This document shows, in pieces, positions 16,114 to 58,935 of a DNA stretch of 64,000 nt. Each line of letters opens with the position of its first letter. Position 1 is the stretch's first letter. A model generated the notes under the pieces. It was not told where the DNA came from. It worked only from the letters and a program-made list of their open reading frames with translations, and did no database searches. Position numbers and translations under genes: made by a program. Origin of the DNA: Amphiscolops sp. MND2022 (taxonomy: Eukaryota); the NCBI GenBank assembly GCA_964187785.1, contig OZ076409.1, positions 44,952,001 to 45,016,000 on the forward strand, written 5' to 3'.

Positions 16114-16367
16114 TCGATAGTGAACACCGATTGCGACAGCAAAACCAAATTCCGGTATCTCGCTGAAAAGCGACTTTGCAACTAATAAGCGATGCAATAG
16201 CGATTAACTCGCGAGTGAATGCTTGGCATGGCAAACTTGTCTGGATTACATTTCCGTTGTACAAAATTCAGCGAAGAAGATCATGACTTTCAAAGTTCAA
16301 TATATAATTGTTCCAAAACATCCATTGAACTTGCAAGGTTCGTTGAAAATATGCAAGGTTGACTAAC

Positions 16368-16647
16368 CTGAAGCACAATCTCCACATACAGAGCAAACAC
16401 CCATGGGCAGTTGAGGAACCATGTTAGGGTCAGTTGTTGAATCCCCTCCATGGCTAGTATTACTGCAATGCTTGTTTTTTCTAGCTCTGGGTCCCGGTGA
16501 TGATGAAACAGTTGGAACTGACACACCTTCCTGTTGACTAGATGGGTTCATGCAATAGCGAGGGTAGGAGTGGTAAGATTCAGACGGGTTTCCTGTCATC
16601 AAATTGGAAGGTGGACCGCCTTCGGAGTGCATTGACTGATTGATCAT
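16368..16647 (-). CDS. ERR: Estrogen-related receptor, N-terminal A/B region and start of zinc finger 1
   Basis: ORF ends CSVCGDCASG with donor TCA G|gttagt, in phase with the 10622 exon; an acceptor at 16656/16655 suggests an upstream exon, so the true start is uncertain. Confidence 0.9.
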
Positions 16648-16859
16648 ATCTGACCCTGACAGGAATCAGCAAACATAAAGCGTCATTGATTTCCTTTGAA
16701 GCAATTGATGAGATTGTCGGCGATAATATCCCACTAGAAGAAAGACACGCAAGGGCATCACAGAAACGCTATCAAGTATCTGAAATGCGGAACCCACCAA
16801 AAAAACGGCGCCAGATCTAATAATCTCAATCTTCGTCTCACGGAAAAACAATTGGAACT

Positions 16860-25676: not shown

Positions 25677-26762
25677 ACAAGCCGGGAACGGCCCAATTCG
25701 GCGCCATATCGAAGGCTCAAAAATAGCAAAAGGACTTCAAAGTGTCAAGTATTCTCTTCTACAGTACTCGCAAGAGGAAAAAATTAAAAAATTCGAATTT
25801 TTTTTCAATTTTTTTTGGTCCCCGGGAAGTCACATAGTGCCGAAAAATGTAAAAGGGGACCTCAAAAAAGCCTAATTAACCTCTATCTCAAGTGCCAGTA
25901 GAAGTAGTGTGCCATTTAGTGTTAGTTCAAGTCAGCTTATAAAGCTTATAATCTGTCCCTTAAAATCTGTCACTTGGTTGGTCTTTAAAAAAACAAGCCG
26001 GGAACGGCCAAGTCGGCGCCATATCCAAGGCTCAAAAATAGCAAAAGGACTTCAAAGTGTCAAGTATTCTCTTCTACAGTACCCGCACGAGGAAAACATT
26101 GAAATTCCGAATTTTTTTTCAAAATTTTTTGGTCTCCGGTAAGCCGCTTAGTCCCGAAAAATGTAGAAGGACCTCGAAAAAGCCTAATTAACCTCTATCT
26201 CAAATGTCAGTAGAAGTAGTGTGGCAGTTAGTGTTAGTGCAAGTCAGCTTATAAAATCTGTCACTTCGTTGATCTTAAAAAAGTCACTGCTATAGTCTGC
26301 GTTTTCTACGAAAAGCGCCGACTAAAAACAGTAGAACCAGATGAAACAAGCCGGGAACGGCGCAAGTCGACGTCTCGCTCAAGGTTCAAAAAGAGCGAAA
26401 TTTTTAAAATATTATTTACAAAGAGACATTATTGTAAATGGACATTTCGGAAAAAAAGTATCAGTGCCGAAAAAACTTTGAGCTCGCAAAACGCTTTTTA
26501 GAGCCTAAATCATTCATGAAAGTATTTGACCAAATAAATTTACGACGAAAAAGTCGCACAGTGCCGAAAAACGGTAGGTCTTTTCCACAATTATCGAGAA
26601 ATCTCTTATCAGTCCCATAGGAACAAAAAATAATCGAAAGAGACCACCATCAAAATGCGGAAGCAAGTTAGTTACAACTCATAGAAATCTGTCAGTTCGC
26701 TGGTCTTGAAAAAAAGCCACTACAATAAATGGCTGTTTCTAACGAAAAGCGCCGACTAAAAA
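25677..26762 (-). mobile_element. Cluster of tandem/nested family 1 Helentron-like elements
   Basis: Three ACAAGCCGGGAACGG termini (25677, ~25993, ~26346) and two GCGCCGACTAAAAA ends. Confidence 0.72.
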
Positions 26763-26987
26763 CGACCAAGTAGATAGATATCGAAAAAAGTTTCATAAAA
26801 GCATTGATAATATAACCATGATATAATTCACGCAAAACAGATCGGTGATAGCATTATTCAGATAGCATTAATTTTTACGAATAACTTCGAAAACTAATGA
26901 TATAAAAATTGAATTGCAAAATCAATAGAAAAAAATCAGGATAATCTGACATTAATAATTGATGAGTCAGATGTGATAATAGCATTC

Positions 26988-27178
26988 TTATCGACTCTTT
27001 TCAGCGATAATAAAGCCGCGATATCGATTTCCATCCGTATCAATCGTGTTCATAGATGCAACCATTTGCTCAACAGGGTACCAGGCACTTTGGAAATAGG
27101 TATCCAAGACTAGCATTTGGTCCGAATCCCTATGATATGCGGCAGCGACACTGAAGTGCCCCAAACCAACGTCAATGT
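26988..27178 (-). CDS. Phytochelatin synthase-like protein, copy 1, exon 3b (catalytic His and Asp, stop)
   Basis: IDVGLGHFSVAAAYHRDSDQMLVLDTYFQSAWYPVEQMVASMNTIDTDGNRYRGFIIAEKSR*; matches PCS GHFS..YH..SD..LILD...W...M.T.D....RGF; putative acceptor ctctag|AC. Confidence 0.87.
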
Positions 27179-27313
27179 CTAGAGTAGCCAGTGATGACAA
27201 GTAAAGTGAATACCAATAACGGAAGTTTAAATAGTCAATTATCTATTCCCTTCAATAAACCGGGACGTTACAATTTTTCAAAGTTACATGTTTTTTCTTT
27301 CATTCGTAGATCA

Positions 27314-27672
27314 GGGGAGCATGATGTCTTGGTTCGAGTATTTGATTTAAACTGAGGCGGTTGGAATCTCTCTGTCAACTCACCGTTGTTGGACATTCAA
27401 CGAAATCTTCATCCCCAGCTAACTGGTATAGCCATGACAAAAAATGACAAAAAATGATGCGTAGGGCGGAGAAAAGCTAAGTTGAAAATGCAGCGGTGAG
27501 TAGTCAGCCTTTGTGACCTTGAAAAAGTCACTTTGAAACCACAGCTTCACAGGCTGCAAATAAGCTACTATAGCTTGCTATGGGGAGATAGCATCCGAAA
27601 GGGTGCCGACTTAGAAAGCAAAAGTGCTTATTCGAGGTCGACCCCGCGGAATTGGGAAAATTACTTTCTTCT
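27314..27672 (+). mobile_element. tRNA-derived SINE, second and more decayed copy
   Basis: Colinear with 15744-16113. Confidence 0.72.
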
Positions 27673-28760
27673 TCAGACAAAAATTTCATTGGCCTATTCC
27701 ATTACGCATTAGACCTCAGGGGTATTAGGGTTAAAGTGTAAAACTATTTGGGTGTCTTCGAGCTCGGCTAATTGATGCTTTTAATTCAACTCCTCAAGGG
27801 GAATTGAAACAATTTTGAAGAAAAAGGATTTCTAACATACCCAAAAAGTGATCATTTGAGCTGCTTCCGATCGATTATTAGTGAAAAAAAAACAATCTCA
27901 CAATTGGGTCTGGTTAAATCAGCCTAAAGTTTATTTTCCGCCTTCACGAATTCATTGCCAAGTGTGTAGCATTTTTTTTCCCAATTCAACTTATTCCTTA
28001 TTCTCAAATATTGTAGTTACCTATTAAAGTTCTTATGTGGATATTTCAGCCACCGTCGCCCAGTTGGCAGTGCGTCCGCCTGGTAGACAGGTCGTGCGTT
28101 CTAACACAGGCTGGAGCCTAAATACCTTCTCAGGAAGTAGGTGGTCGGTATATCTCATGTTCGCCATACCTTTTGCCTTTTTTTTAAAAAAAAAGATGGG
28201 TTTCGAACCTCGCTTTCTCCATTTTTTTTGTGAGGCGGAAAATATCTAGGTGCTTAGCGGGCGTCTTGTTAAATTTCGAAACTAAACTGTAACTCTTTTG
28301 GAATGAATTTTGAAAGATCAAAACATTTCATTAGGCTTTACTTTGTGCTGCTCTCGATAATTAATTCTTGAAACCAAAATATCTCAGAAATCGGCTTCAA
28401 TAATATCAATCTTTCAATTGGGACTAATGCCACAGAAAATTAAGAGGAAATTTATGAAAACTAGAGGCAAAATGCTACTGCATGCTACTGCATAAGAACT
28501 GAGGTGACTGTTTCCTTGCCAATCGGGTGCTTGCGAAAAAATGACTGCTTGCCGAAATGTTTGTCGGTGCTATAGGATGTTTTTCAAAAAAACCTTCAGC
28601 TCAGAACTAATTTTATTCCAATAATTCTCCAAACTATTTTCAAAATAGTCAAGAAATTTATTTCCGATCAAGGATCTCTCAAAAACAAAAAGAAACTCCA
28701 AAAATGAACCCACTTCGATCAATCTGAAGGTCGTGAGTTTTCGAATTACCCCAAATCAAA

Positions 28761-30110
28761 ACAAGCCGGGACCGACCCAAGTCGGCGCCATATCTAAGGC
28801 TCAGAAAGAGCAAAAGGACTTCAAAGTGTCAAGTATTCTCTTCTACAGTACTCGCAAGAGGAAAAAATTAAAAAATTCGAATTTTTTTTCAATTTTTTTT
28901 GGTCCCCGGGAAGTCACATAGTGCCGAAAAATGTAAAAGGGGACCTCAAAAAAGCCTAATTAACCTCTATCTCAAGTGCCAGTAGAAGTAGTGTGCCATT
29001 TAGTGTTAGTTCAAGTCAGCTTATAAAGCTTATAATCTGTCCCTTAAAATCTGTCACTTGGTTGGTCTTTAAAAAAACAAGCCGGGAACGGCCAAGTCGG
29101 CGCCATATCTAAGGCTCAGAAAGAGCAAAAAGACTTCAAAAAGTCAAAGTATTGGTGAACTGAGGACCCTTTCATGAGAAAAATTGTAAAAAGGTCTCAC
29201 AATGCCGAAAAAACTGAAAGGGATGAGGATTCTTTGGGATTTTCCAACATCCATTCTGTCGCAACACTCCCAAACATTGAAGAGGGCACTTTGGTGGGAA
29301 AAAATTCGAAAAAAAGTCGCACAATGCTGAAAAACTGAAAGGGGGATCCTTTAGACTCGCCCGGTAATGTATGTTAAGCTGAAAAAGCCTTTTGGTTCAT
29401 TTTCCAGGGCCAACAGGTGCAATTTAAAATTTTGTAGAACTTTTGGTAGAACTCTTTTGGTCACTTCAGGTGTATCGAAAAACAAGACGAGAACGTCTGA
29501 AGTCGGCGCTATATCTAAGGCTCAAAAAGCGCAAAACATTTTTATTGGAAAAACTTGAAATTTTTTTTCCGGAAAATCTCGCATAGTGCCGAAAAATGTA
29601 AAAAAGGGGGACCCTTTGGGACTTATTAACATACATTCTGTTGCAAAATAACAAAAAACTCGAAGGGTGTACCCTTTGGAGACATAGAAAAATTTTCGAA
29701 AAAAAAGTCGCAGTGCCGAAAAAATCCAAAGGGGGGGGGTGGATCCTTTAGGCTAGTCCGGTTTTGTAGGTTACGTTAAAAAAGTAAAAAAATGAAAGGG
29801 GGACCCTTTGCACTAAGTTTGCTTTGGCCGGACTTGGCTTTAGGTGGTTTCAGAAATATTTCTAAAAAGTGGACCGATCAGTGTGAGGTTACTGGATCAG
29901 TGTGAGGTTACCATAGTATGTGGTCTGAAGAAAAAAGGTCACTGCTATAGTCGGGCATTTTTCCTTAAAAGGAAAACGCGCCGACTAAAAAAGGTCACTG
30001 TTATAGTCGGGCATTTTTCATCAAAAGGAAAACGCGCCGACTAAAAACACTGAACACTAACGAAAAGCCATGACTATAGTCGGCTCTTTTCAAGAAAACC
30101 GCCGACTAGA
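28761..30110 (-). mobile_element. Cluster of nested family 1 Helentron-like elements
   Basis: Termini at ~28761, ~29077, ~29482; stacked GCCGACTAAAAA ends at 29980-30110. Confidence 0.72.
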
Positions 30111-30608
30111 AATAAAGTGCGAAAATGAGTGAAATCACTTTGACGAAAACACTTTTAGTCAAGAATTTCTCTAAAATGAGTTCAATTCTCGAAAATTGGC
30201 TTTACCCAAATGAATCTAAAGGACCATTCCGCTTGAGATTTCTGCCAAAGGAAATAATTGGAAAATTTTTTGAAAATTGTCAAAGTTGGCACTTTCGCAA
30301 TTATTGCCACTTTTGGACCATAGTTTCTAAACAAAAACAAAACGCGAAATCAGCCCCAGATGATTCAAGCCCAAACTTGAAAAACAATTTTTTTACAAAA
30401 TGGAAATTTTCGGCATTTTGATGTGGAGGGAAAACTAGACGATATGTAACCCCAATCCATGGAGATTTTTGCTATTTTCAAAAACTGGAATAAAATTTTT
30501 CAATAGCCAAAATCACAATTAAGCTATCAAAAGAATGAACTATGAAAGGTCTACCATTGTGCTTTGATGAGCCCCAGTGGCCAGGCGCCCCAATCTTCAG
30601 AATTCTAG

Positions 30609-30940
30609 TTTTAGTCGGCGTGAAGTGAAAACGCGACTATTATAGTGACTCTTTTTTTTTATAGTGACCCCTTTCAGTTTTTCGGCGTTGTGAGACTTTT
30701 TTTTTCCTAAAATTTTTTACTCTCCAAAGGGTCCCCCCTTCAACTGCGACAAAAATGTTGACAATTTCGGACGTGTCCCCCCCCCTTTTAGCGCGCCACT
30801 CGGTCCATTTTTTTGAATATGTAATTTTTTCGAAAATTTTTCGATTTTCGAGTACTATAAAGAATACTTGACACTTGGAAGTCTTTTTGCTATTTTTGAG
30901 CCTTGGATATGGCGCCGACTTGGGCCGGTCCCGGCTTGTT
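30609..30940 (+). mobile_element. Helentron/DINE-1-like element, family 1
   Basis: TTTTAGTCGGCG ... GCGCCGACTTGGGCCGGTCCCGGCTTGTT. Confidence 0.72.
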
Positions 30941-31878
30941 TCCTGAACCGCCGAGCTTCGCGGAGATTGTATCAAAAACAGCACATTATGTGGTTTTGCT
31001 GCACGAGGCACTGTTGTGTAATGGTATACAGTTGCCGTTTTAAATGCACCAAGAACTGTTCAGAAAATTGGATTTTATAAAAAAAATTCTTGAAAAATGT
31101 AACTATTTTTTAACAAAAACAGAATTTTCTCAACTCCGGGGAAAATGAACTTTTTCTAACTATTCCGTTGGAACCAAACAAAGTACCGACAAAGGATAAA
31201 TTTAAACTGTGCCAAAAATATGAGCAGCTGGTAAAATGATTCGGATGTTTGTTAACGGCTTTAAAGCATTATTAGGTTAATTGGCGTTAATACACCTACG
31301 GAAAGTTATCAGTCGTGAAAATAAAGTGGCCAGCCCAGCATCACTTTTGGCAGAATTTTTGAAACTGATGCAATGGTTTTATGACAATGAAAATGGCTTC
31401 CAAAAATCAATCAAATATTCCGTTCGAAAAACAGCAAAATATTACCATGAAAACTACAGAACAATTCTGAATGAACCTCAAAAGTGATTATTTCGAAGTA
31501 AAATCTACGGGATGAAACAACTCTATTTATAAAAGTTCCTGAAGTGATGAAATTCCGGACAGACAATCCAAGCTTTGGAACCTTGAAGGAGGCACCTTTG
31601 ACATGGAATCTTTTGAATGCTGTCAAAGCTCTTACAAAATTACTCAGTCAAATGTCTAAACTCGCTCACTTCCGGCAATGATTTTCATCTTACTAGCTGC
31701 CGTGAGTTATGTAAACAAACAGTCAACTCCGGTTAATTCGTATCCGGATAATTCGGATCTTCGTTCGATTCGTATGTATCTGAGACCCCATTTCGCGACG
31801 GGCAAAGTAATATCATCCGGATAATTCGAATTTCTCATAATTCGTACTATTTTATTCGATCCCTAGCGATACGAATTA

Positions 31879-34713
31879 CAGTACGTTCGTTTTGTCTATG
31901 CAAGTGTCACTGAAAAAAGAAATGTAGATTCAGTGTGTATTGAAACATATTGAAACACATTTTGAATGCTTACATTTTTTTTTACAAAGTAGCATGAAAT
32001 TGTTTTCACGTGTTTTAATTAAAATGCAGGAAATGAATTTTTGCAAAATGAAATTTTAAGTGTTCGTTTTGTTTAGGCAACTTTACTTTATGAACATTTA
32101 TTTAAACCATTATTGAAGTTATTCACCCGAAACTTTTACTATGGGCAAGAAACAAGATTTGACATCGTCTGAAAAAGACGAAATTGTTCGTTTATTTGGG
32201 AAAGGAATATCAACATTGCAAATAGCCAAAGATGTGAAGCGAGATCTTCGGACCATCAAATCATTTGCTAACAACTCTACCAAAGTTCGTACAAATGGGA
32301 GAAGGGAATTTGCAAAGTTACAAAAAGAAGCAAGTCACTTTTGGCACGAAAATTGAAGCAAAATCAGTTATCAACCAGTGGAAAATTATTTTGTGAAGCT
32401 GGCATTCAAAACTGTGGTCGGACACTTAGATGTTAAATTCTATCAACAATTGGAAAAATAGTTCAACCAATTCGCCAACCTCCTCTGTCTAAGTGCATGG
32501 ATCAAATCCTGTAGCCTGGGCGAAACAATACATGAAAGTAGATTTGCGACGAGTTATATTTACCGATGAATGTCGGGCCACATTAGATGGACCAGATGGC
32601 TTCTGTAGAGGGTGGGTGCATACCGCAACTGAAATTCCACGTAGGCTACGTCGCCAGCAAGGTGGTGGTGGAGTAGTTTTGGGCCGGTATTCTGTATAAC
32701 AAAGTAGTAGGACCATTTAGGGTCCCTCAAAATGGATTCCAATTCCTACCAACTTTTCTTACGGCAAAATTTTAAACCATGGTACCACGGCCTACCACTG
32801 GACGAGAAAATCGCATGCATGACAATGCACCTTCGCATGCTGCCAAAAATTCAATGTCATATCTGGAGAGTATTGGCATTTTTGGGTCACGATTAATGAA
32901 CTGGCCACCATCATCACCGGATTCAAATCCCATTGATAACTTTTGGGGTATCATCAAAAGAAATGTTTATGCGGAAAACAAGCAGTTTCATTCAAAGGAT
33001 GATCTGTGGAGAGCTATTGTCAATGTTCCTAACGAATTGACCCAAACAATAAAAAAACTGACCTCCTCAGTTGATCTTTATATCGGTACTGATTCGGATT
33101 CTTTATATAGTCACCGATACAATTACTTTATGGTAATTGTATTTCCCGAATTTTGGAAAAAAATCGTTTTTTGTCAAAAGCAAATGAATTTGCATAAACA
33201 AAAAGAACAGTTTGTTTTTTAAACTCTAAAGTTTGGAAGGAAATACAGTTACCTGTTTTCTGTTGCTTTATATATACTTATGATTCGTTCAAATAAAATG
33301 TGTTTATTAAACAGAAGTGTTTTTAGTCGGCGCATTTTAGTAGAAAATGTGCCCGACTCTTACAGTGGGTAGTTTTTTTAGACGAAAGGTCCACTTTTTG
33401 TTCATTTGTTAAAAAACCTCAAACCTCAACAACTTCAAACCTCAACAACTCCAACCTCAGAAGCGCGTCCAAAACGAAAAGAAAAAACAAAACAGACGTC
33501 CAGAACCTCGAAAACACACTAAGGATCCCCCCATAGCCCCACTTTTTTTCGGTACTATGAGACTTTTTGAAACTTTTTGGATTGCACCAAAGGGTCCCCC
33601 CTTCATTTGTTTCGATATTTTGCAACACAATGGAAGTCAAAAAGGCAAAAGCGTCCCCCCTTTTACATTTTTCGGCACTGTGACACTATTCAAAAAATCT
33701 TTTTTGGGAAATTTTTTCATGTCCCCAAAGGGTATCCCCTTCAATTAATTTCATTTTTTGCAACCAGCTGGAGTTTCACAAAGCCCGAAAGGTCCCCCCT
33801 TTTCAATTTTGAGCCTTAGATATGGCGCCGACTTTGGCCCTTCTCGGCTTGTTCTTATTTCATTGAGAAGTTCTGACAAAAAATTTACTGATTCGGATTC
33901 TTTATATAGTCACCGATACAATTACTTTATGGTAATTGTATTTCCCGAATTTTGGAAAAAAATCGTTTTTTGTCAAAAGCAAATGAATTTGCATAAACAA
34001 AAAGAACAGTTTGTTTTTTAAACTCTAAAGTTTGGAAGGAAATACAGTTACCTGTTTTCTGTTGCTTTATATATACTTATGATTCGTTCAAATAAAATGT
34101 GTTTATTAAACAGAAGTGTTTTTAGTCGGCGCATTTTAGTAGAAAATGTGCCCGACTCTTACAGTGGGTAGTTTTTTTAGACGAAAGGTCCACTTTTTGT
34201 TCATTTGTTAAAAAACCTCAAACCTCAACAACTTCAAACCTCAACAACTCCAACCTCAGAAGCGCGTCCAAAACGAAAAGAAAAAACAAAACAGACGTCC
34301 AGAACCTCGAAAACACACTAAGGATCCCCCCATAGCCCCACTTTTTTTCGGTACTATGAGACTTTTTGAAACTTTTTGGATTGCACCAAAGGGTCCCCCC
34401 TTCATTTGTTTCGATATTTTGCAACACAATGGAAGTCAAAAAGGCAAAAGCGTCCCCCCTTTTACATTTTTCGGCACTGTGACACTATTCAAAAAATCTT
34501 TTTTGGGAAATTTTTTCATGTCCCCAAAGGGTATCCCCTTCAATTAATTTCATTTTTTGCAACCAGCTGGAGTTTCACAAAGCCCGAAAGGTCCCCCCTT
34601 TTCAATTTTGAGCCTTAGATATGGCGCCGACTTTGGCCCTTCTCGGCTTGTTCTTATTTCATTGAGAAGTTCTGACAAAAAATTTCACTTGCATAAACAA
34701 AACGAACAGGGTG
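31879..34713 (+). mobile_element. Decayed Tc1/mariner transposon of DD37E (TRT-like) type
   Basis: MGKKQDLT HTH start at 32141; FTDECRATLDGPDG, RRQQGGGGV, MHDNAPSH-...-WPPSSPDSNPID (37-residue spacing); imperfect TIRs GTTCGTTTTGTYTATGCAAGTG with inner repeats near 32062 and 33190. Confidence 0.85.
33087..34684. repeat. Tandem duplication, 2 x 799 bp
   Basis: 33087-33885 and 33886-34684 appear identical; ORF track repeats at a 799 offset; each unit contains a family 1 element. Confidence 0.95.
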
Positions 34714-34821
34714 ATGGTGGATTCCACTGTACTGAAGAATGGGTCAGTCTTTTGGTACTGAAAAAAAGCTTTTTCATAATATTATAGCTTAAGCAGAAGT
34801 AATGCAGAAACTGGTCATCAC

Positions 34822-34923
34822 TGAGAGTTGGAGCCCAGAAATTGACAATCATCACTCGATTCACATTTTGTTCGTTGGAAATACAAGTCATGAGTTGGCC
34901 GCGTAATACTTCCGGACTGCGTT
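34822..34923 (-). CDS. Phytochelatin synthase-like protein, copy 1, exon 3a (5' of the TIR insertion)
   Basis: ttaag|AA CGC...; ERSPEVLRGQLMTCISNEQNVNRVMIVNFWAPTL, colinear with paralog; putative donor A|gtgatg lies inside the TIR. Confidence 0.8.
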
Positions 34924-35253
34924 CTTAAAAAGAATTCATATTTGGACTTCCTCATCTGTTATTATCAGTTATCATTTCACAACCTGCTACAATGTCACGA
35001 GTTAACTAAATTCTTGACAGAAATATAGATTCCACGCTTTTGTGAAACAGGCGCTCCAATACTAAATCAGAGCTTTGAAAATCAGAGCCACATTTTGGAG
35101 ACAATAGAGATACTGGAAAGCATCTTCTGTAACTATTGTGTAACGAAATCCGTTCCACTTCTGATTTATGATATGAGTAAAGACATACATCAATTATACA
35201 AGCCTCAGGTTGAAAGAAGACGCAAAAAATAAATATGGCAACAGTTATCTAAC

Positions 35254-35409
35254 CACTCATGTGATGAGAGCCACCAAGACAGCCAAAGAACTTGATAATA
35301 TTAGAAGCACAGGCTAGATTCATTCCATTAATTTCAACCACTTTCGGGTCGCACACCTCCTTGGCAAGATCGGAGTTACCAACTAAATCTGCCTCTCTGA
35401 TTTCACCCT
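35254..35409 (-). CDS. Phytochelatin synthase-like protein, copy 1, exon 2
   Basis: tttag|AG ... AGT G|gttaga; EGEIREADLVGNSDLAKEVCDPKVVEINGMNLACASNIIKFFGC...; 156 bp, colinear with 42528-42683. Confidence 0.82.
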
Positions 35410-35934
35410 CTAAAATTCAAGAGCTTTAACGTTGGAAGACTGCAAATGACGAAAATTTCGAAAATTGACAAGTTTTGGCTCATTTGAGGCATTTTTAAAA
35501 ACAAGTTCATAATTGCCTTCACAAAACATATGGTACGAACCGTTCTCTCCGTTTTATTCTGTGGAAGAAACTCCACCTTTTGAGTAGAAAATGACACTGT
35601 GGTAAAATTTAGGGAAAACGCGGCTGAGACATTAATTTTTCTTTACCATATGGACTATGGGCGGAAATTTCAAGGATGACATAATTGAAGGAATCATTAC
35701 GCCGTGTTGCGTACATTTCAAAAGCTTATATATGCGGTTCACTGATGAAAGAAAATGAAGCAAAAACATCAAACTTTCCAGCGAAATTACGGTTACATTC
35801 AACACTAAGTGGTTTTATGAAACCAAGAATCCGAATTAAGTATGCAAGTTCGACAGGAATTTCACCAGAAATTATTTTGCAAAAACGAAAGAAAAATTGA
35901 ATCAACAGCTTTCTAGAGGTGACAAAAGACTAAC

Positions 35935-36127
35935 CAAAAACATTTAAAGCAGACAAAGCGCATGCAGAAGAGCAATAACCACAAAAGGAATTGCCATCTT
36001 GTTCATGGAAAAAAGGTGAAATAGTTTTGTAAGCACTCTGATTTTTCTGTTCAGCCTCCTGTAGAAGTTTCTGACCGTCAAGCGAAGCAAGCAGAATGCC
36101 CGTGGTACTAGCCAGTCCACGGCTCAT
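35935..36127 (-). CDS. Phytochelatin synthase-like protein, copy 1, exon 1 (catalytic Cys)
   Basis: MSRGLAST...FHEQDGNSFCGYCSSACALSALNVF; QxxxxxCG motif of PCS; 193 bp, same length as paralog exon; donor G|gttagt. Confidence 0.85.
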
Positions 36128-36451
36128 AGTTGGAAAGGTGAGGAAACTGTTTGAAGCCAATATTTGTTCTTCAAGTGGGGTGACTTACAACACTAGTGCA
36201 TTAAACTGAAATTCACAGGGAAAGTTAAATTTATAGCAAAAACTTCTAGAAACAAATGAAGATTACAAAGAGGAATTTTTTTATTATCAACAGACGTCCG
36301 CGATATTGATACTCATAACCAAAATCGAAAGCAATTTTGCTACGCTGAGGCAGGGTTGTGCATCGTCAAGAAGATTTCGACATTTATTTTGCGATAAAAC
36401 ATTAAAACAGTAGTCACATTATTTTAAAAATAGTATATTAGGATAAGATAA

Positions 36452-37341
36452 ACAAGCCGGGACCGGCCCAAGTCGGCGCCATATCCAAGGCTCAAAAATA
36501 GCAAAAGGACTTCCAAGTGTCAATTTACAGTACTCGAAAATCGAAAAAGCAAAAAATATGAACTGAGTGGCGCGCCGGGGCCCGCTAGCGCAAGCCCCTG
36601 GCGCGCTAAAAGGGGGATACTTCCGAAATTGTCAACATTTTTGTCGCAGTTGAAGGGGGGACCCTTTGGAGAAAAAACAAATTTTCGAAAAAAAGTCTCA
36701 CAATGCCGAAAAACTGAAAGGGGGACCCTTTGGGATATTTAAACACCCAATCTGTTGTAAAATATCAAAGAAATTGAAGGGGGACCCTTTGGAGAGAAAA
36801 AAATTTAGAAAAAAAGTCTCACAATGCCGAAAAATTGAAAAAGGGGACCCTTTGGGGTTTTTCAACATCCATTCTGTCGCAAAACATCAAAAAAATGAAG
36901 TTGGGAAAAATTTTTATTTTCGAAAAAAATCTCACAGTGCCGAAAAAAAACTGAAAGGGGGACCCTTTGGGATTTTCCAACATCCATTCTGTCGCAAAAC
37001 AGCAAAAAAATTGAAGGGGCCCTTTGGGGAAAATTTTTTTTCCGAAAAAAAAGTCGCAGTGCCGAAAAAAATTAAAGGGGGGACCCTTTGGTCTCGCCCG
37101 GTATGGTATGTTACGCGGGAAAACAGGAAAAACCTTTTTGGTTCAGTTCGCTAGACCAAATAGTCAATTTGGTGCAATAATATTTTGTAGAACTTCTAAG
37201 AACTATTTTGGTCAGTTCGTGTGGATTGAAAAAAAAAGAAATGCCACTATAATAGTCGCGTTTCACTTCATGAAGCGCCGACTAAAAAAAGAAAAGCCAC
37301 TATAATAGTCGCGTTTCACTTCATGAAGCGCCGACTAAAAA
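36452..37341 (-). mobile_element. Helentron/DINE-1-like element, family 1, with expanded internal tandem repeats
   Basis: Both termini intact; about four ~115-120 bp units containing CACAATGCCGAAAAA and GGGGGACCCTTTGG; duplicated terminal palindrome. Confidence 0.78.
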
Positions 37342-38432
37342 TGGATGAAGTTTAACTCCATCGTGGTGACTCTATGTTGAAGTCTCGATATGTGCTGCTT
37401 TTCATGATAGAGCTACAATGGTCAATTACCGATACTCCACCAGTCATCGTGAGGGTTTTCTTGCGCATGTTGCTATTCTGGCAGCCAGGAGTATGAAATC
37501 AAGAATCCTGCAGCCGAAACGCAACTTTAGCAGTACCTTAATTCCTACTCAATTTGAACCTGGGCATTTCTAGTAGCGTTCTAAAATATCGCTACCTCTT
37601 TGCTTAAAATGGCAAAATTCAAAATCAAATATCTCGTGAACTGTTACAAATACAATATGAGCTACCTACAAAAGTTTATAATTTTACCTAGTTTACAAAA
37701 AACTGAAAATTCAAAATTTGGGAAGGTTTAATTGAATTGTTTTGATCGAGAATTTGTTTCGAATCAGAAAAAACACTATTTTGTGTCTATGATTACTGCA
37801 ATCCACGTATTGATGAGTCGTATTTAGAAATTTATAAATTTTATTTGAAATCGAAAGAGTTTTCAAATTTTTCAAATTGTAACAGCGTCCTCAAGAGATT
37901 CGGGGATATATTTGGCCAAAAAAATTAGTGCAAAATTTGAAGAACTACAAAAAAAACTATAAAACTTTGGCTGACACTTTCGTATTCATGGCAGTTTTGA
38001 AGATACTTTAAGCGATGGAGCGGGACATTTTTAGCTCACTGCTGTATTTCGTGTCCTGACACCTGACAATTTCAAAACAAAATTCCAGGGAAACGGACTT
38101 TTTAATGTATTAAAAACTTTGTATCAGAATTGTTATAACTCGCGTTATTTCCGAATTGTTTCCCTAATTCCAAAATACTTCAGGTCATTTATTTTAATAA
38201 AAATCAGGCCTAGAGCAGACTTCTGTATAAACCAACCTCGCATGACAGTTTTAAAAAGGAACTCAGTCAGGAAGCATTCAACAGAACCTCAATACACATT
38301 TGGGAAAAGTTGTAAAACATCTTCGACAGAAAAATATGAATTTAATTTAAAAACTAGACATTTGTACCTTTAAAAACTATAAATTTCAACCTATTCCAAT
38401 CTAATAGATATAATTTTTAGACAATTGATATA

Positions 38433-38564
38433 TTAATCTTTCTCAACAACGATGAAACCTCGGTGGCGACGTCCATCATAATCGATGGTATTCATAGCTG
38501 CAGTCATTTGTTCAATGGAGTACCACGCACTTTGAAAAAAAGTATCCAAAACCAGCAATTGATC
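38433..38564 (-). CDS. Phytochelatin synthase-like protein, copy 2, exon 3, 3' part (probably disconnected; copy 2 may be a pseudogene)
   Basis: DQLLVLDTFFQSAWYSIEQMTAAMNTIDYDGRRHRGFIVVEKD* resumes exactly where 41823 stops. Confidence 0.83.
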   Translation of the reverse strand, partial: DQLLVLDTFFQSAWYSIEQMTAAMNTIDYDGRRHRGFIVVEKD

Positions 38565-41500
38565 AAAAAAAACACTGTATTTCCTTCATTAATAAATGAC
38601 AATAAAATAGTAATTTATTTTCAGAAGGTAGTGTATTTACATTTTTTTTAGTTTAAAGTAGGAAAGAGGTATCATTAAGTTTTGCAAGAAACAATACAGA
38701 TAATCTATCGAAAGCGATATTCACTCCAACATTTTTTTCCATATTCGAAATTGTCTTTTTCACTTACATATTTGTTTAGGAAGTATTGTTTGATGTTTTT
38801 TTTGGTTGTTATGTAGGTACATTTCCCAATTTTTAGCTTGTCAGGTAACTCGTTCCATATGGGCACTGTTTTATTGAAAAAGCTTTTCTTAAGAAAGTCA
38901 GTTTTGCATTGGATGTTGAAGTAGACTTTCTTGGTTCGTTCGTGGGATCTTATGTCACCGGTAGGAAATTTCATTTTCCCTGCAAAAGCCGGAAGTTTTT
39001 TGTTTTTCCATTTCCAGTAGAAGTTGGCATTTTTGCTTTGAAAGAGATATCGGACTGGAAGGATATCATGCTGAACTTTGAGATCTGATGAATGATCATA
39101 TTTTAAACGGTTAAAACATGCTTTTATTCCCCAATTTAACTGTTTCTCTAAAGTGGTAAGAAGGTTTTCTGAAATTCCGCTTAGTAAGATAGCTGAGTAG
39201 TGCAAGTGGCTCACCACTAGGGCGTTTAAAAGCAGTTTCCTGGTTTTTTGGGGGAATATGTCTCGTACAGAGTACAGACTTTTTATTCCCAGTGCCATCT
39301 TGCGGAGGATATTTTTGATCTCGATTTGGTAGTTCAGATTTTGATCCAGATAAACACCGAGATATTTCGCATTAGAGATTGCCGGAATTATTTGGTTGTG
39401 AACTTTGAGTTTCAGTTTATTCATCGAATCATTTTTTGCTTTTTTACAAAAAATTATAAATTCAGTCTTGCCAGCATTGATGGTCAACCGGTGACTTTCA
39501 AAAAAGAATACTAATTTCTTCACATTTTGTTCAAGTGAGGCTATTGCTTTGTCGATGTTGCTATCTGATTTGAACACCATGGTATCATCTGCGTATTGCA
39601 AAAGATTGCAGTCATTTTGAACCTCATGCTGCATATCATTAACGTAGATGTTGAATAGTAATGGACCGAGTACGGTTCCTTGAGGAACACCTTGGTATAG
39701 TTTTATCCAATCTGAGTGACAGTTTGGAAGTGTTACTTTTTGGTATCTTTCGGAAAGAAAACTTCGTATCATCGAGATTGACATCGGGTCGAAGTTATAT
39801 TGCTTTAATTTATTTAACAAGATTTCATGCGATATGGAATCGAAGGCTTTTGATAAATCCAAGAAAGCTGCTGCGACATTTTCGCCATCGTCTAAATTTT
39901 TCCTGATAGTTTCAGTAGCATAAAGTAATGCATCGGTTGTTGAAAAACGTGCTCGAAAACCAAACTGTGTTTCGCTTAATAAATGATTTTCCTCCAGATA
40001 CTCATTCATTTGTTTTCTTAGAACTTTTTCGAAAATTTTTGATAGGGCAGGGGTTATTGAGATGGGTCGATAATTGCATGGGTCTTCTCTGTTTCCCTTT
40101 TTATAAATAGGAGTTACCAAAGCGTGTTTCAAATGATTTGGAAATTTTCCTTCCATGATGAAGGCATTGATTAGGTAGCAAAGGGGCTCAGCAATGACGT
40201 TTCTACAGTCTTTCAAAACCCATGCAGGAATACTACACGGTCCTATAGGTTTATTTTTATTAAGACATAATAGCTGTTTTTTGCAGTCATAAAGACTGAT
40301 GGGTTGAAACGAGAATACTTTTTTCGTGATTTTTGTTTCGGGTATTGTTGGCGGATCGTAAGGCCTAGCAGTCCCCATATAGTCCCCTAATTTTGAGAAC
40401 CGAAAATTTAGTAGGTTTGCAATTTTCTTTTGGTCTGTTACATGGTCGCCGAAACAGTTCTTTAGGCTTGTTATTTCAGTTTTCGTTCGCCTTGCATTCC
40501 TGGATTCGTTTATAAATTTCCATTTGTCCTTTTCCGTAGTCAGGTTGTTGAAATTTGCTATTTGATCTTCAAGGCGGTTTGCTTCGAGGTTTTCAAGGAA
40601 AACTCGTTTAAGTGATAAGTAGGTTTGATCAGTAGGATGCATACTTCTATCTAATTTTCGGTAGAGTTTCTTTGTTTCTTGGCTGACCCAGTTTTCGTGG
40701 ATTGTAAGGCTGCTTTTGTCGTTTCTTATGAAAACTCTTTTTTTTTGGAACACACTGTTTTATAGCATCTTCCAGAATTTGTGTGAAAATAGTAAACATT
40801 CCTTCGGGGCAGCTTTGATTGTAAAAATTTCCCCAATTACTACGACTTACTACATCGCGTAGTGTGTCTTTGTTGTAGTTTGATTTGTCGAATATCTCTT
40901 TTATAAATGCTTTGCTTTTTGATTTCATTTGGATATCAGTTATACAAACGGTAGCTAAATGATCAATGTCCGTGTTTTTTCTAGTTCTAAGCGGCGTATC
41001 GCAAATCATAGTTTCAAAGTTTTCATTAGATTGTAAGTCAGTGATAATGTAGTCAATTAAAGATTTTGAGTTATTTTGTATTCTTGTCGGGCTTGATGTG
41101 TTTAGTATTCGAAAACCATATGGGACTGTAATTGTGTCTAAGCTTTGTTTCTCTGTGGGGTTGAGATAGTTGATGTTATAATCACCCATCAACGTGATGG
41201 GTTTATTCTCGACAATTGCATAGTCGATACTAGTAGATAGTTCTTCAAGAAAAGCATCAGTAAGAGACTTTTGTGGATTGTAACTGATATTGATAAGTTG
41301 TTTTCGTTTCATTGATGAGTTGTTGTTCAGGTTACATTCAACCCATAGGCTTTCAAATAACTTCTGATTTAGATGATTGAGGTCTTTTCGTTCTTTCGGA
41401 TGTAGAGATTTTGGTACTAGGAGCATAATTCCTCCACCTTTTTTGTTTTTCTGTTAATTCGAAATGTTTCAAAATGTTCTGATTTCATTTCCCAGAGTTT

Positions 41501-41822
41501 CACATGGTCGTGATCTTTGAGCCATGTTTCAGTGAAACCGTACACAGTATTTCTACCGAGGTCATTTAAGAGTGTTTCAATTTGGGTTCGTTTCTGGGTC
41601 AGACTTTGACAGTTAATATTTACATATTTTAGTTTTGTTTTATTTTTGGAGAATGTTTCGCAAACGAACTTGTATATTCGGCATGGACCGGGATTTTGTT
41701 CTATGTCACCAGCACGGTTCAGTAGCACTCGGTGGTCCCAGTAATGAGGTTTAGTGTTTGGTAACTGGTGGCTCACATGGTGAGACCATTCATGTTTCAA
41801 CCCATCAGTGATGTTTCAACCC
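38565..41822 (-). mobile_element. 5'-truncated CR1/L2-group non-LTR retrotransposon (2A-like peptide, APE endonuclease, RT)
   Basis: Three overlapping ORFs (41417-41800, 40647-41426, 38705-40753) with FTETWL, MGDYNINYL, SLIDYI, NYRPIS, FLDLSKAFDSI, GVPQGTVLGPLLF, QYADDT; frameshifts lie in homopolymers; short (T)GAT duplication at the ends. Confidence 0.93.
38705..40753 (-). CDS. LINE ORF2 reverse transcriptase region
   Basis: 682 aa ORF with canonical non-LTR RT motifs (YADD). Confidence 0.92.
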   Translation of the reverse strand: MFQKKRVFIRNDKSSLTIHENWVSQETKKLYRKLDRSMHPTDQTYLSLKRVFLENLEANRLEDQIANFNNLTTEKDKWKFINESRNARRTKTEITSLKNCFGDHVTDQKKIANLLNFRFSKLGDYMGTARPYDPPTIPETKITKKVFSFQPISLYDCKKQLLCLNKNKPIGPCSIPAWVLKDCRNVIAEPLCYLINAFIMEGKFPNHLKHALVTPIYKKGNREDPCNYRPISITPALSKIFEKVLRKQMNEYLEENHLLSETQFGFRARFSTTDALLYATETIRKNLDDGENVAAAFLDLSKAFDSISHEILLNKLKQYNFDPMSISMIRSFLSERYQKVTLPNCHSDWIKLYQGVPQGTVLGPLLFNIYVNDMQHEVQNDCNLLQYADDTMVFKSDSNIDKAIASLEQNVKKLVFFFESHRLTINAGKTEFIIFCKKAKNDSMNKLKLKVHNQIIPAISNAKYLGVYLDQNLNYQIEIKNILRKMALGIKSLYSVRDIFPQKTRKLLLNALVVSHLHYSAILLSGISENLLTTLEKQLNWGIKACFNRLKYDHSSDLKVQHDILPVRYLFQSKNANFYWKWKNKKLPAFAGKMKFPTGDIRSHERTKKVYFNIQCKTDFLKKSFFNKTVPIWNELPDKLKIGKCTYITTKKNIKQYFLNKYVSEKDNFEYGKKCWSEYRFR

Positions 41823-41983
41823 ATCAGTTCCCTTATTGTATGCCGCAGCCACGCTGAAGTGTCCATAACCAGGCTCTATGCCCAAATCGGGAGCCCAGAA
41901 GTTGACAATCATCACCCGATCCACCGTGTGCCCATTAGAGACACACGTGATGAGCTTGTCACGTAAAACTTCCGGTGTGTGTC
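41823..41983 (-). CDS. Phytochelatin synthase-like protein, copy 2, exon 3, 5' part (interrupted by LINE)
   Basis: ttcaag|GA CAC...; GHTPEVLRDKLITCVSNGHTVDRVMIVNFWAPDLGIEPGYGHFSVAAAYNKGTD, then LINE sequence. Confidence 0.83.
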
Positions 41984-42527
41984 CTTGAAATAATTAAAAT
42001 ATCTGTCAACTGGAGTTCAAGTTTATGAAGTGCGAAAAAGGAAACAAAATTGAGCGACGTCATAAGTGTTTCTGAGGAACCAATTGTTTTTGCTGCTCAT
42101 TTTGAAGGTGAGTGTCGTCACAAAAACTGTCACTAGTTAGAAAACAGACTCAGGCATTTAGAATTTCTACACGATGTAATTCGTGATGGCGGAAGGTTTA
42201 GTGCGTAAGTTCAAAGGAAGGAAATTTCCTTTCGATTCCCAAACAAAAGGTACAATTTTAGTGCTTGAGAATCTCCGACATTGCCTTCGAAAGTTTGCTA
42301 TCTAATGTATATACGAGTAAATATAGCACTTTGAAGTTTTCTACAATGGAAGTCAGATGTACAGAGATTTGTACAACTTTCGAGTTTCAAGTGAAAATTT
42401 GAATTCAGTGGAAATTTGAGAAAACAATCAAGTTGAGATTTGGCTGTATCTTATCAATACCTCTCTCTAACGAACGTACAAGTCAAATCAAACAATCCCG
42501 ACTTAACCAATGAAAACAAATTCTTAC

Positions 42528-42683
42528 CAATCATGTAGTATGAACCATCACGACAACCATAAAATTTGACTATATTTGAAACTATTTCCAGACGCATTCC
42601 GCGCATCCACACATTTTTTGGGTCATACACCTTCTTAGCTAAGCCAGAATCATTCATAAGGTCTGCTTGTCTGACCGTCTTTC
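42528..42683 (-). CDS. Phytochelatin synthase-like protein, copy 2, exon 2
   Basis: tttag|GA AAG ... ATT G|gtaaga; GKTVRQADLMNDSGLAKKVYDPKNVWMRGMRLEIVSNIVKFYGCRDGSYYMI. Confidence 0.82.
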
Positions 42684-42857
42684 CTAAAACTCAAATACTT
42701 TTCGTCTCGAGTATAAAAACTATGTTTTGGAAACTTCATAAGTAAAAGAAATGAATAAATAGCAGCACTTGCTTTTAAACGAGCATAGGTTTCAGAAATT
42801 TTACACTAGATTTTTCACTAACCATTTTTCCCGACTTTTAGAAGTTCGAATTTCTTA

Positions 42858-42984
42858 TACAAATATTAACAGAGCAGATGATATGGGATTGCTGTGCATA
42901 GTCGAATTATGTATTCTTAATTTGATCCTACATAATTCGACTATGCATAGCAATCCCATATCATCTGCTCTGTTAATATTTGTA
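42858..42984. repeat. Near-perfect hairpin (56-bp arms, 15-nt loop), probable TA-flanked MITE
   Basis: 42858-42913 is the reverse complement of 42929-42984 with one mismatch. Confidence 0.9.
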
Positions 42985-43459
42985 GAATCTGTGATTGATT
43001 ATTACTGCAAGTCGCCAAGATCTGGGAGCTTGCGGGGGGATATGTATCGTAATGTGTGCAGGATCGATGAGTTGAAAATTTTATAACTATCACACCACAT
43101 CTTTAGTGCCCTAAATGTAAGAGCGAAGCGACGTGTCTTTACTTGACCAGCGACAAGCTTTGACGAATGCTGACCTGGCAAAGCGCCCCATACAACCAAT
43201 TTCGGTTTTTAAATTTATAATGAAATTAATATTTCCGATCCTGTATAATTCGATTCTAAATAATTCGTTTCTTGAGAGGAACCTCGATGATATCGCGTGC
43301 AACTAGCATCGTACCACAGCATACCAAATGACGTGCTGTGCTATAATGATTGAAAACAAGTAGAATTTCAGAAGTTTTCCCAACGAAGGACCGAGAAAGG
43401 GGATTGCATCCATGATGAAATAATCTCGGGATATAATGCAAGTCTGATAAAAAACTAAC

Positions 43460-43652
43460 CGAAAACGTTTAGAACAGATAAGGCACATGCAGCCGAAGTG
43501 TAACCACAAACAGCCCTGCCTTCCTGTTTATGGAAACAGGGAGATATCGCTTGGTAAGAACTCTGGTTATTTAGTTCTGCCTGCTGCAGGAGTTTCTGAC
43601 CTTCAGGCAAATCTAAAAGAACGCCCGAGGTGGAAGTGTATACTCGTGTCAT
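43460..43652 (-). CDS. Phytochelatin synthase-like protein, copy 2, exon 1
   Basis: MTRVYTST...FHKQEGRAVCGYTSAACALSVLNVF; donor G|gttagt; clear paralog of 35935-36127. Confidence 0.83.
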
Positions 43653-45262
43653 GACCGGGCAGACAACAAAACGCAAAGCGCACTTTCAACACATATAACT
43701 TAGCCACCGCTAACGTACCCCACAGTAGCCATGAAATAACTGAAAACGAAGGTGACTGTAAATCGATCAGAATCTTCCCAAAATACAACGAATGTTTCTG
43801 GAAGCAGCAGAATGTTTCAAGATACTACTCATAGTACAATGTTCCTGCAGAAACATTGACAATTAAACGTTGAAAGCTTCCATTTCGATCTCCATCTTAT
43901 TTAGTTTGCTTTGAAGCGTCATATACATTATATTAATATAGATGTACATTAGTTAGGGTAAAGTTTTACCAACAGAAAGCGAAACCCTTTCAAGAAGATT
44001 GGATAGTAAAAGTCCAATTTATTGTAACTGAGAGCCAAAAATGCTTGGAGAGTTACTAACTTGTCTTTAATGATGGAAAAATTCAAAAACTCTTTATGCA
44101 ATAAAAAGTGAATTAGCAGATTACCAAACTATTCGAAGCAAAACGAAACTTGAGAAAGTGAAAGATGTACGTACCACTTTGGCCCTTGAAAGCAAAACTT
44201 TCCTTACTCGCTGAAACATCGTTCATACATTTTTGCCAACTTGAAACGGTATACTGTATCAAGAAATGTGAAAATACGGTTAATATTCAATGCCATATAA
44301 TGAACTGACAGAATTCGGCAAATTTTTAGATCCTCTCTGGAGCATCCATTGAGTTGAAAGCATAAATACTAAAAAAGCCGATTCGAATTTGCTAATACGA
44401 AATGATCACAGGACAGAAAATTAAAACTTTTTAATCGCAGAGTTTTTTCAACAACTAGGAAATGAACATTCAAAAGTTGAATATAATTGAACATTACTAA
44501 CAGAGTGGGCATAATTTTTGCATAGCAAACAAAGATCGAACACTTTCACAAAAAACAACCTAGAGATCATTCGGGCTGAAAAAAAGCTCTATTAAAAATT
44601 GAGGGCAGAAGATCAGCAGATGCTTTTTCCGCAAAACACTGAAAATTTTAAGAACATTTAAAAGCTTTCGAATTATAACATCTGAAGACACTCGGAACTT
44701 TGAAGGCATTATCAACTTTATTACAACAAGTTACTAGAAACTACTAAGTTACTAACAACTTTCTTTCACAAAATCCCCAAGCTGGAAAAGTTTTTTAGTG
44801 GGATACACTTTCTCCCAGCACGTTAAAATTATGTTAGAAGGAAGATACTTTCTTGAAATTAGCCAAATAAGGCATCCTCGGAAAACATAAGTAACTGCTG
44901 ATGAGAAAACATAGGACCAAAAACATCAAAATGTTTCTGGTCGCTACGACTTCTCGGCATCAGAAACTAAATGTGGGAACTCAACCGCAAAGCAGAAAGC
45001 ATTACTGGTTGTGAAAAAATGAGAGACTAACCTCTTAGAGAGATACATAATAAATTATTTTCACTGTGGTATACTTGGAAAAAAATGACTGAATTTTGAG
45101 AAATAAGATAGAAATTTGTGAGATGTGTTGAGCTCGTTTATTTTCCAATGTTGACTGCTTTAGTCAATTTTCAGCAAGCAAGTAAGCGACAAAAGAAGAA
45201 GAAAAATGACAGACTAATCTCTAACTACCTGTCAACAGCAAATGAAATTTGTTGAACGATAG

Positions 45263-58320: not shown

Positions 58321-58935
58321 GTTCCCCATCGTCTTCATCACAATTGTCACTTTCTTCCGATAAATATTCGATTTATTGTGGTTGGGGACTTTCTTCAAAA
58401 GAGGCCCCTCCGGGGCACATACCTATTTCTCCTTTAATCTTTCATTAATATTATTACACTACTTTGTTTTAAAACCAAGATGATTTTGTTTTTAATAAAG
58501 GTATAATTCAGTGTTCTTTAAAATAATAGAATAATATCTGGATTATCAATACAATGTTTAATCATATTTTGCGCACAATTAATCACTGTCCAAGTTTACA
58601 CCGCCTTTAAATCTTTTCGGACTAAAGAAAATATAACCACTAAGCGTAGACGAAGTTTCGCATTCGCATTTGAATGAAGGCGAAGCTCTCCGAGAACGAA
58701 TAGTTAACTCATTCGCTTCATTTCAATGACGTCAGCGTACGAATGCATAATTACCACTCGCTCGTTCCATCGCACGAGTATTGAAATGTCGTCGGCAGCT
58801 TGAGAAATTTAATTCTCACGCTTACAGTCACTGCCGAACAAATATCTGAATTATTCAGTACCGTGAGAAGAATTGTACTGAAAAAAGTAGACATCTTGAG
58901 ATTTCAGTAATATTCCTGCTATCGCAGTAATAATA

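Follow-up and report, generated by a model that had tools for sequence, protein, structure and literature searches.

Two tandem phytochelatin-synthase-like genes interrupted by transposable elements in a probable acoel: members of a wider eukaryotic branch lacking conserved basic residues

Why do animals keep genes of the phytochelatin synthase (PCS) family, and do all of these genes make phytochelatins? This question is raised by a tandem pair of PCS-like genes in a 64,000-nucleotide stretch of DNA from Amphiscolops sp. MND2022 (assembly GCA_964187785.1, contig OZ076409.1, positions 44,952,001 to 45,016,000), here called the window. We put the probability at about 0.6 that the pair encodes a short cysteine hydrolase with a papain fold, which would belong to a side branch of PCS in eukaryotes, cleave glutathione-like or other small amides and make no phytochelatins. 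The two genes are probably members of a wider branch and not an oddity of one lineage. Of the two copies, at least one is probably broken; because one copy looks broken, the locus stands out less than it did at first sight.

Copy B (43652-38433) and copy A (36127-26988) are co-oriented paralogs on the minus strand (Table 1). An earlier reading of the DNA (the sequence-only reading) had recognised a tandem pair with equal lengths of exons 1 and 2, and the minus-strand translation agrees. In both copies, the introns after exons 1 and 2 are in phase 1 and bounded by GT-AG (donors GTTAGT, GTTAGA, GTTAGT and GTAAGA). The copies are identical at 129 of 213 aligned residues (61%). With the Nei-Gojobori method, the nonsynonymous distance (dN) between them is 0.27 and the synonymous distance (dS) is 1.43 (dN/dS ~0.19), with values of 0.21 and 1.73 for the part 3' of the copy A insertion. 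These distances thus mark the pair, as read from its codons, as an old tandem duplication that has been under purifying selection since the duplication.

Both genes carry the motifs FCG/VCG, NFWAP, GHFSV and VLDT(Y/F)FQSAW, and both exon sets hold Gln43 (six residues before the Cys), Cys49, His158 and Asp176; in copy B, a long interspersed nuclear element (LINE) separates the His from the Asp. A stop codon follows directly after the domain, 8-9 residues past an RGF motif, as compared to 9-13 residues, counted from the R, in relatives of the acoel group. Extra downstream exons were thus ruled out, as the relatives end at the same place. A Cys-rich C-terminal domain is absent in both copies, which bears out the proposed catalytic-domain-only architecture. 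The N termini begin directly at the domain and have no long hydrophobic or signal-peptide-like stretch, so the enzymes are probably cytosolic, as far as their N termini indicate.

Table 1. Coordinates of the two PCS-like genes and of the elements inserted in them (window positions).
Feature	Position	Strand	Description
Copy B exon 1	43460..43652	-	193 bp; start codon, oxyanion Gln43, Cys49 codon 43506-43508; PF05023 E 1.2e-5
Copy B exon 2	42528..42683	-	156 bp; GM.L motif; tblastn against copy A exon 2 E 4e-13
Copy B last exon, 5' part	41823..41983	-	NFWAP (Arg152 equivalent lost), His158 codon 41859-41861
LINE retrotransposon in copy B	38562..41822	-	3,261 bp; endonuclease and reverse transcriptase; RVT_1 E 5e-39, Exo_endo_phos_2 E 0.039
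Copy B last exon, 3' part	38433..38561	-	Asp176 codon 38544-38546; short loop without Arg183/Lys185; stop; PF05023 E 2.3e-4
Copy A exon 1	35935..36127	-	193 bp; start codon, Gln43, Cys49 codon 35981-35983; PF05023 E 5.1e-7
Copy A exon 2	35254..35409	-	156 bp
Copy A last exon, 5' part	34822..34923	-	NFWAP; final 2 bases from the transposon end in the spliced model
Insertion in copy A with terminal inverted repeats	27189..34823	.	7,635 bp; 14-bp repeats 34810-34823 and 27189-27202; nested repeats
Predicted transposon-made intron of copy A	27179..34821	-	7,643 bp; its GT lies in the inverted repeat, its AG in the host just past the target duplication
Copy A last exon, 3' part	26988..27178	-	His158 codon 27156-27158, Asp176 codon 27102-27104, stop; PF05023 E 9.3e-12; Alr0975 E 2.7e-5

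The assignment of the pair to the PCS family, also made by the sequence-only reading, was confirmed by profile searches. Five of the eight exon pieces match the Pfam family PF05023, four of them with E-values from 9e-12 to 2e-4 and one with 0.0017, while PF05023 gave no match for the two exon-2 pieces and a 33-residue piece. Three pieces lie above the curated cut-off of 24.9 bits (45.0, 29.6 and 25.1 bits), and full-length relatives reach 82-133 bits. For the peptidase C39-like families PF13529 and PF03412, the exon pieces have no match and the relatives score 13-16 bits against a cut-off of 24. When the last exon of copy A was compared to the Protein Data Bank (PDB), Alr0975 of Nostoc was the only meaningful match, and a profile of the branch likewise matched Alr0975 as the sole protein (172 bits). 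An AlphaFold model of the sea-urchin member P0154 (mean confidence pLDDT 90.5), rather than of the window proteins themselves, was used for the fold comparison; it matches Alr0975 with E 5e-17 and a template-modelling (TM) score of 0.80, with staphopain next (E 3e-5). On these profiles and this model, the pair is assigned to the PCS fold family (PF05023, peptidase C83) and not to another papain-like family.

To which proteins is the pair related? A search with the last exon of copy A among 1.84 billion representatives gave 157 matches at E <=0.001, the best 150 of 157 being listed; 30 proteins were looked up, and eight clusters carry a taxon name. Among the matches listed, the named clusters are Convolutriloba macropyga, Strongylocentrotus purpuratus, Antedon, Amphiura, Saccoglossus, the foraminiferan Bolivina (two) and Vitrella, to which a profile search adds Lytechinus and Diadema. 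Copy A shares 50% identity with the acoel Convolutriloba, the closest named relative among these matches, 65% with an 89-residue fragment (P0195) and 36% with the sea urchin. Judged from this closest named relative, the host itself is probably an acoel. The branch appears to range over acoels, echinoderms, hemichordates, foraminifera and many other marine eukaryotes, and a short PF05023 type without the Arg and Lys residues was found in sea urchins, brittle stars, a crinoid, an acorn worm and foraminifera. RefSeq calls the sea-urchin and acorn-worm members glutathione gamma-glutamylcysteinyltransferase; these names are automatic family labels. The acorn-worm member XP_002730372 is presumably the product of the mRNA record XM_002730326. 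Five top matches (P0001, P0006, P0024, P0074 and P0090) were rejected as repeat artefacts with no match to the branch profile. In the acoel-group paralog P0194, the catalytic His is replaced by Asn, so this may be an inactive member, and P0002, P0009 and P0034 each have two tandem PCS-like domains, one of which looks degenerate.

A DNA motif pattern, which being exact misses divergent members, detected 97 metagenome loci, 60 of which fit the eukaryotic short profile best and 37 bacterial profiles. Some of the 60 eukaryotic-type loci lie in DNA that is very poor in open reading frames (ORFs), for instance L039, L072 and L085. An acoel-specific DNA pattern matched 0 metagenome contigs, and the branch pattern matched 0 viral contigs.

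The sequence-only reading had noted that conserved basic residues are lost in both copies. This was confirmed: the window pair has Ala at the position of Arg152 and Ile in the column of Gln157, it has no Lys five residues after the Asp (the Lys185 equivalent), and the loop after the Asp is three residues shorter. The pocket residues Gln157, Phe184 and Tyr186 that characterise functional PCS are missing from the pair. Such features are not peculiar to the pair; they mark the wider eukaryotic branch. Among the 40 rows of the clade in an 82-row tree, Cys is present in 36 (4 gaps), His in 39, Asp in all 40 and Gln in 33 (5 gaps). In the same rows, Arg152 and Lys185 are both found in 0/40 and Arg183 in one, and 39 of the 40 have an aromatic residue two positions after the catalytic Asp. 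The comparison rows have Arg152 in 36/36 and Lys185 in 32/36; as we chose the groups ourselves, partly by motif, this contrast is a description of the sets rather than a test independent of them.

What would an enzyme with these residues do? According to PMC3855540, Gln50 of AtPCS1 forms the oxyanion hole, and the second-substrate pocket is lined by Arg152 and Lys185; the activity left in mutants is 0.02% for R152A, 0.02% for K185A, 0.01% for R152K and 0.56% for K185R. In the Schistosoma enzyme SmPCS, synthesis continues when the C-terminal domain is missing, and the catalytic domain suffices (PMC3561135). Because Arg152 and Lys185 are essential in AtPCS1 and the loss of the C-terminal domain is tolerated in SmPCS, we predict that the cutting step is intact and the joining step is lost in the pair. 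The AtPCS1 mutants R152A and K185A thus support the changed chemistry that the sequence-only reading had suggested. In the proposed mechanism, His158 and Asp176 would activate Cys49, which would attack the amide bond of a small substrate, Gln43 would steady the intermediate, and an acyl-enzyme would form as in PCS. Neutral and aromatic residues appear to replace the pocket of Arg152, Arg183 and Lys185; because of this replacement, the acyl-enzyme would be released by water or an acceptor other than glutathione and not by a second glutathione, so that no phytochelatin would be made. Our guess, by analogy, is that the enzyme would most likely act on gamma-Glu-Cys-X compounds, glutathione conjugates or gamma-glutamyl amides or amines.

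Several points weigh against this proposal. The AtPCS1 mutants may disturb the first site too. The Nostoc enzyme Alr0975 (NsPCS) is mainly a glutathione hydrolase, yet it keeps its basic residues Arg173 and Lys206, so its hydrolysis of glutathione cannot simply be transferred to the pair. The substrate proposed here is a guess from kinship. Because NsPCS hydrolyses glutathione yet keeps both basic residues, a non-glutathione peptide is the main rival substrate. The branch may have left glutathione chemistry altogether and use the PCS scaffold as a peptidase or amidase for a protein, a peptide or another small amide, an alternative that we consider unlikely. It would account for the absence of Arg152 and Lys185 in 40/40 rows and for the aromatic residue in 39/40, and a search of the ESM Atlas with the last exon ranks C39-like clusters first. 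However, the Atlas search at full length ranks PCS clusters first, full-length members are above the cut-off for PF05023 only (C39_2 E 0.016-0.17), and the NsPCS motifs GM.L, N-[YF], GH.S and M-N-T-x-D are kept.

A further alternative, suggested by some database labels, is that both proteins are functional phytochelatin synthases whose acceptor pocket has been rebuilt; of the alternatives that we considered, it is the least probable. In its favour, both the triad and the oxyanion Gln are preserved, SmPCS needs no more than its catalytic domain, RefSeq uses the synthase name for the sea-urchin and acorn-worm members, and the topology test described below does not reject a kinship with long PCS. 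Yet even the replacements R152K and K185R, with the residual activities given above, nearly abolish AtPCS1 activity, and a compensating basic residue was not found at the aligned positions. Furthermore, the W.G.WR insert occurs in 0/34 short eukaryote-type rows compared to 8/12 long PCS, and the enzyme names are, as noted, automatic labels. We prefer a hydrolase that cuts small amides and makes no phytochelatins.

Where does the branch come from? All trees were quick IQ-TREE runs with support from the Shimodaira-Hasegawa-like approximate likelihood-ratio test (SH-aLRT) only. The 99-row tree left out fragments of <140 profile columns and 10 near-duplicates, and the later trees are hand-picked subsets; the long group consists of proteins recognised by motif, with no named animal long PCS. 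In every tree, the window pair groups with Convolutriloba and acoel-like fragments (99-100). This acoel group joins echinoderm, hemichordate and foraminiferan proteins with a support of 94 in the 99-row tree, 96 in the 82-row tree with six bacterial proteins included, and 92 after the motif columns were removed, where the bacterial rows and Vitrella fall outside. The placement of Vitrella in the branch is unstable between trees. In 0/4 trees did the acoel proteins group with long PCS. A short-branch profile built without acoels was the best for 7/7 acoel-group rows; for copy A, it gave 147 bits compared to 123 and 98 bits, the last value being that of the long profile. With 12 sequences in each profile, the scores for copy A were 137, 111 and 98 bits.

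Three results weigh against a separate short branch. In a 45-row tree, the acoel group joins it with an SH-aLRT of only 68. In the approximately unbiased (AU) test, a grouping of the acoel proteins with long canonical PCS was not rejected (p 0.546), the constrained tree being 1.07 log units better; both groups have long stems. Lastly, copy B finds its best single pairwise match in a canonical protein of bacterial type (76.7 vs 69.7 bits). The best reading of trees and profiles is still a separate eukaryotic branch of prokaryote-type ancestry. Such an ancestry is likely, judged from the sequences, because NsPCS is the nearest solved structure, and any transfer would be older than the acoel lineage.

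The sequence-only reading had raised the possibility of an old horizontal acquisition that later gained introns. In a stricter form, in which the acoel lineage received the genes from bacteria or an algal symbiont, this history is in our view improbable. It would fit the prokaryote-type length and motifs, the nearest structure, the long acoel stem and the unsettled placement. Both introns also occur in relatives of the acoel group (in P0152 and P0196, the break falls at the intron-1 site), and bacteria with a similar motif loss exist. However, the acoel group joins the echinoderm, hemichordate and foraminiferan proteins in 4/4 trees, and a search of 185,579 prokaryote genomes gave no donor: its 20 motif matches all obtain a higher score with the ordinary bacterial-type profile than with the short eukaryotic profile (20/20). 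A profile of these look-alikes gives the window proteins their lowest scores (60 and 50 bits), and no named alga is among the near matches listed. A single-protein scan of prokaryote genomes returned 17 pattern matches and no relative, and plasmids yielded 10 ordinary PCS-family matches at 27-30%. Neisseriaceae and Chlamydiae proteins had appeared as a bacterial sister group (96); these six rows left the branch without the motif columns, and this candidate was ruled out. The look-alikes (L001-L020) include Dongia-type Alphaproteobacteria as well as Neisseriaceae and Chlamydiae, several with signal-peptide-like starts, which also lack the Arg/Lys pocket, apparently independently.

Are the two copies still functional genes? 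The sequence-only reading took both for intact genes of ~213 residues and did not see that each last exon carries an insertion. The motifs stand but the intactness does not: copy B is split by the LINE, and copy A encodes 213 residues only if its insertion is spliced out. The last exon was ancestrally single, as P0003, P0005, P0016, P0194 and P0195 cross both insertion sites as one ORF. The paralog dN/dS dates neither insertion.

The LINE in copy B runs in the same direction as the gene and separates the His codon from the Asp codon; TGAT stands at each of its two junctions, and an AATAAA lies near its 3' end. It has two frame breaks, and because both lie in A runs, the element may be young. 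Reading through gives 175 residues and then a stop, with the Asp absent; the stop is met because a 19-nt duplication shifts the frame. Of this tandem duplication (41792-41828), which is at the 5' junction of the LINE, one copy is in frame with PCS and the second in frame with the LINE. Among the GT/GC-AG pairs near both LINE ends, only two are in frame; they use a non-consensus donor (GG/GTTGAA, the slash marking the boundary) and would add 5 or 8 residues. From this structure, we consider it quite likely that a young LINE has broken copy B. Near the N terminus of the LINE (41684-41707, minus strand) is a DIEQNPGP motif, which we take to resemble the 2A ribosome-skipping motif of some non-long-terminal-repeat retrotransposons. 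Intron 1 of copy B contains a 59-bp inverted repeat (42855-42987, 97%, 15-nt spacer) that is similar to miniature inverted-repeat transposable elements.

In copy A, the terminal inverted repeats of the insertion match at 13/14 positions, and only two such sites occur in the window. The target duplication (34824-34831 and 27181-27188) is degenerate, with 6/8 matching positions over 8 bp. By its ends (a CAG start and an 8-bp duplication), the insertion is presumably hAT-like; among its seven ORF pieces, no hAT transposase was found, only Tc1-type DDE_3 and weak helix-turn-helix matches. The predicted splice (TCA/GTGATG ... TAG/AC) takes its GT from the element, at that element's third base; the product would still have 213 residues, with a single Asp changed to Asn. 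Of nine in-frame splice options, this one alone keeps the exact length. The zone free of AG before the acceptor is 62 nt long, compared to 4-21 nt in four ordinary introns, and AG is found at 5% of positions in the coding regions of the pair. Of the features expected of a transposon-derived intron, the inverted repeats, the target duplication and a site that is empty in relatives are present. From this geometry, we lean towards a transposon that is spliced out and a copy A that is probably still working.

This reading competes with a locus at which both copies are recently inactivated pseudogenes or null alleles, so that the clean splice geometry of copy A would be luck. We regard this as doubtful. 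Both copies have multi-kilobase insertions in their coding sequence, a GT-N-AG donor is found at the start of neither insertion, the copy A insertion contains nine AATAAA motifs in the gene's orientation, and, as a weak point, the last exon of copy A is in no database protein of at least 110 residues (eight candidates, word search). Two further results speak against splicing. The donor GTGATG has no G at +5, unlike all five other donors read in the window. Moreover, at 2% divergence half of the simulated dead copies look intact, so a young insertion needs no splicing. On the other hand, a simulated dead copy keeps its frame and the four catalytic residues in 18% of cases at 5% divergence and in 3% at 10%, and the prior for an exact-length GT-AG removal is ~5% (higher if nearby in-frame options are allowed). 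Divergence has built up at the ends of the insertion (3 mismatches among 22 paired bases), yet the 213 codons contain no stop or frameshift. Nor does copy A show more change than copy B (15 residues unique to A vs 23 to B, p 0.26), and introns with a donor in the element and an acceptor from the target have already been described (PMC9860276). We thus retain a spliced copy A as the better account.

The copy A insertion contains further repeats. A decayed Tc1/mariner-type transposase is nested in it at 32100-33220 on the plus strand (DDE_3 E 4e-8, weak helix-turn-helix match). An exact 800-bp tandem duplication at 33087-34685 is either very recent or an assembly artefact, and paired repeats like it lie near 47250-47550 and 50130-50430. 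A tRNA-like stretch at 28045-28150 (plus strand), seen by eye, could be the head of a short interspersed nuclear element; ARAGORN and Rfam gave nothing for it. There are no tRNA genes in the window, and Rfam had no match in 26000-46000. Another decayed retroelement, with C2H2 zinc fingers and a weak RVT_1 match, and a Tc5-type DNA-binding domain are found at 56439-58372 and 59525-59872 (minus strand). Downstream of the pair lie exons of a nuclear-receptor gene (10441-10620 and 16366-16665, minus strand; zf-C4 E 5e-26); because this gene shares the donor style of the pair, we conclude that the window belongs to an animal chromosome.

What follows for the animal PCS records? PMC3838358 counts Echinodermata and the Saccoglossus record XM_002730326 among the PCS-bearing animals, with types not separated, and states that not all PCS homologs need make phytochelatins. 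Two supplements of the hemichordate genome paper (PMC4729200) make no mention of phytochelatin. No description of the short branch without Arg and Lys was found in the literature searched, which excluded reviews of animal PCS in subscription journals that may mention it; the branch is thus apparently undescribed. If the wider picture set out below is true, the published spread of 'phytochelatin synthase' over the animal phyla is in part based on enzymes that do not synthesise any phytochelatin; copy A would then be a snapshot of a 7.6-kb transposon that has become a working intron. A simple sequence rule (no Arg152, no Lys185, an aromatic residue two after the catalytic Asp) sorts the animal 'PCS' records into two classes. 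Tentatively, and with less confidence than in its parts, we propose the whole as one picture: an old, distinct eukaryotic branch of the PCS family with a rebuilt leaving-group pocket would perform an undescribed reaction, for instance the hydrolysis or transfer of gamma-glutamyl(-cysteinyl) amides with neutral or amine partners, and copy A would carry a 7.6-kb transposon turned into a working intron.

How does the pair compare to known systems? Half-size PCS are found in algae and cyanobacteria (PMC11314372). NsPCS of Nostoc PCC 7120 (PDB 2BTW, 2BU3, 6TH5, 6THO and 6TJL; Pfam PF05023, MEROPS C83) resembles the pair in its catalytic-domain-only size, the Cys-His-Asp triad, the oxyanion Gln, the GM.L and N-[YF] motifs and the fold. 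It differs in that it keeps Arg173, Lys206 and Tyr207, whereas in the pair the Arg is replaced by Ala, the loop after the Asp is three residues shorter without Lys or Arg, and Val replaces Pro after GHxS; the pair are also intron-bearing animal genes without a signal-peptide-like start. The long eukaryotic PCS (AtPCS1, C. elegans PCS-1 and Schistosoma SmPCS) share with the pair the family, the triad and a spacing of 18 residues between His and Asp, but the pair lacks their C-terminal domain, the W.G.WR insert, the Glu four residues before the Cys, and Arg152, Gln157, Arg183 and Lys185.

The pair also resembles the uncharacterised short PF05023 proteins of Convolutriloba (XP_075247163), Strongylocentrotus (XP_790643), Saccoglossus (XP_002730372), Antedon (XP_071964499), Amphiura (XP_072044957), Bolivina (EP01084 proteins) and Vitrella (CEM01730), which have 206-282 residues and the same motif losses. 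Among the aligned rows, FWAP together with the three-residue loop deletion is common only to the pair and P0195, and the relatives lack the two insertions. For copy A, the known parallel is the Introners (Gozashti et al. 2022, PMC9860276), which include, as a described class, introns with the donor in the element and the acceptor from the target. Copy A resembles them in its inverted repeats, its target duplication, a 5' splice site from the element, a 3' splice site from the target and an mRNA length that would be unchanged, whereas it differs in being a single nested 7.6-kb element for which splicing is only predicted.

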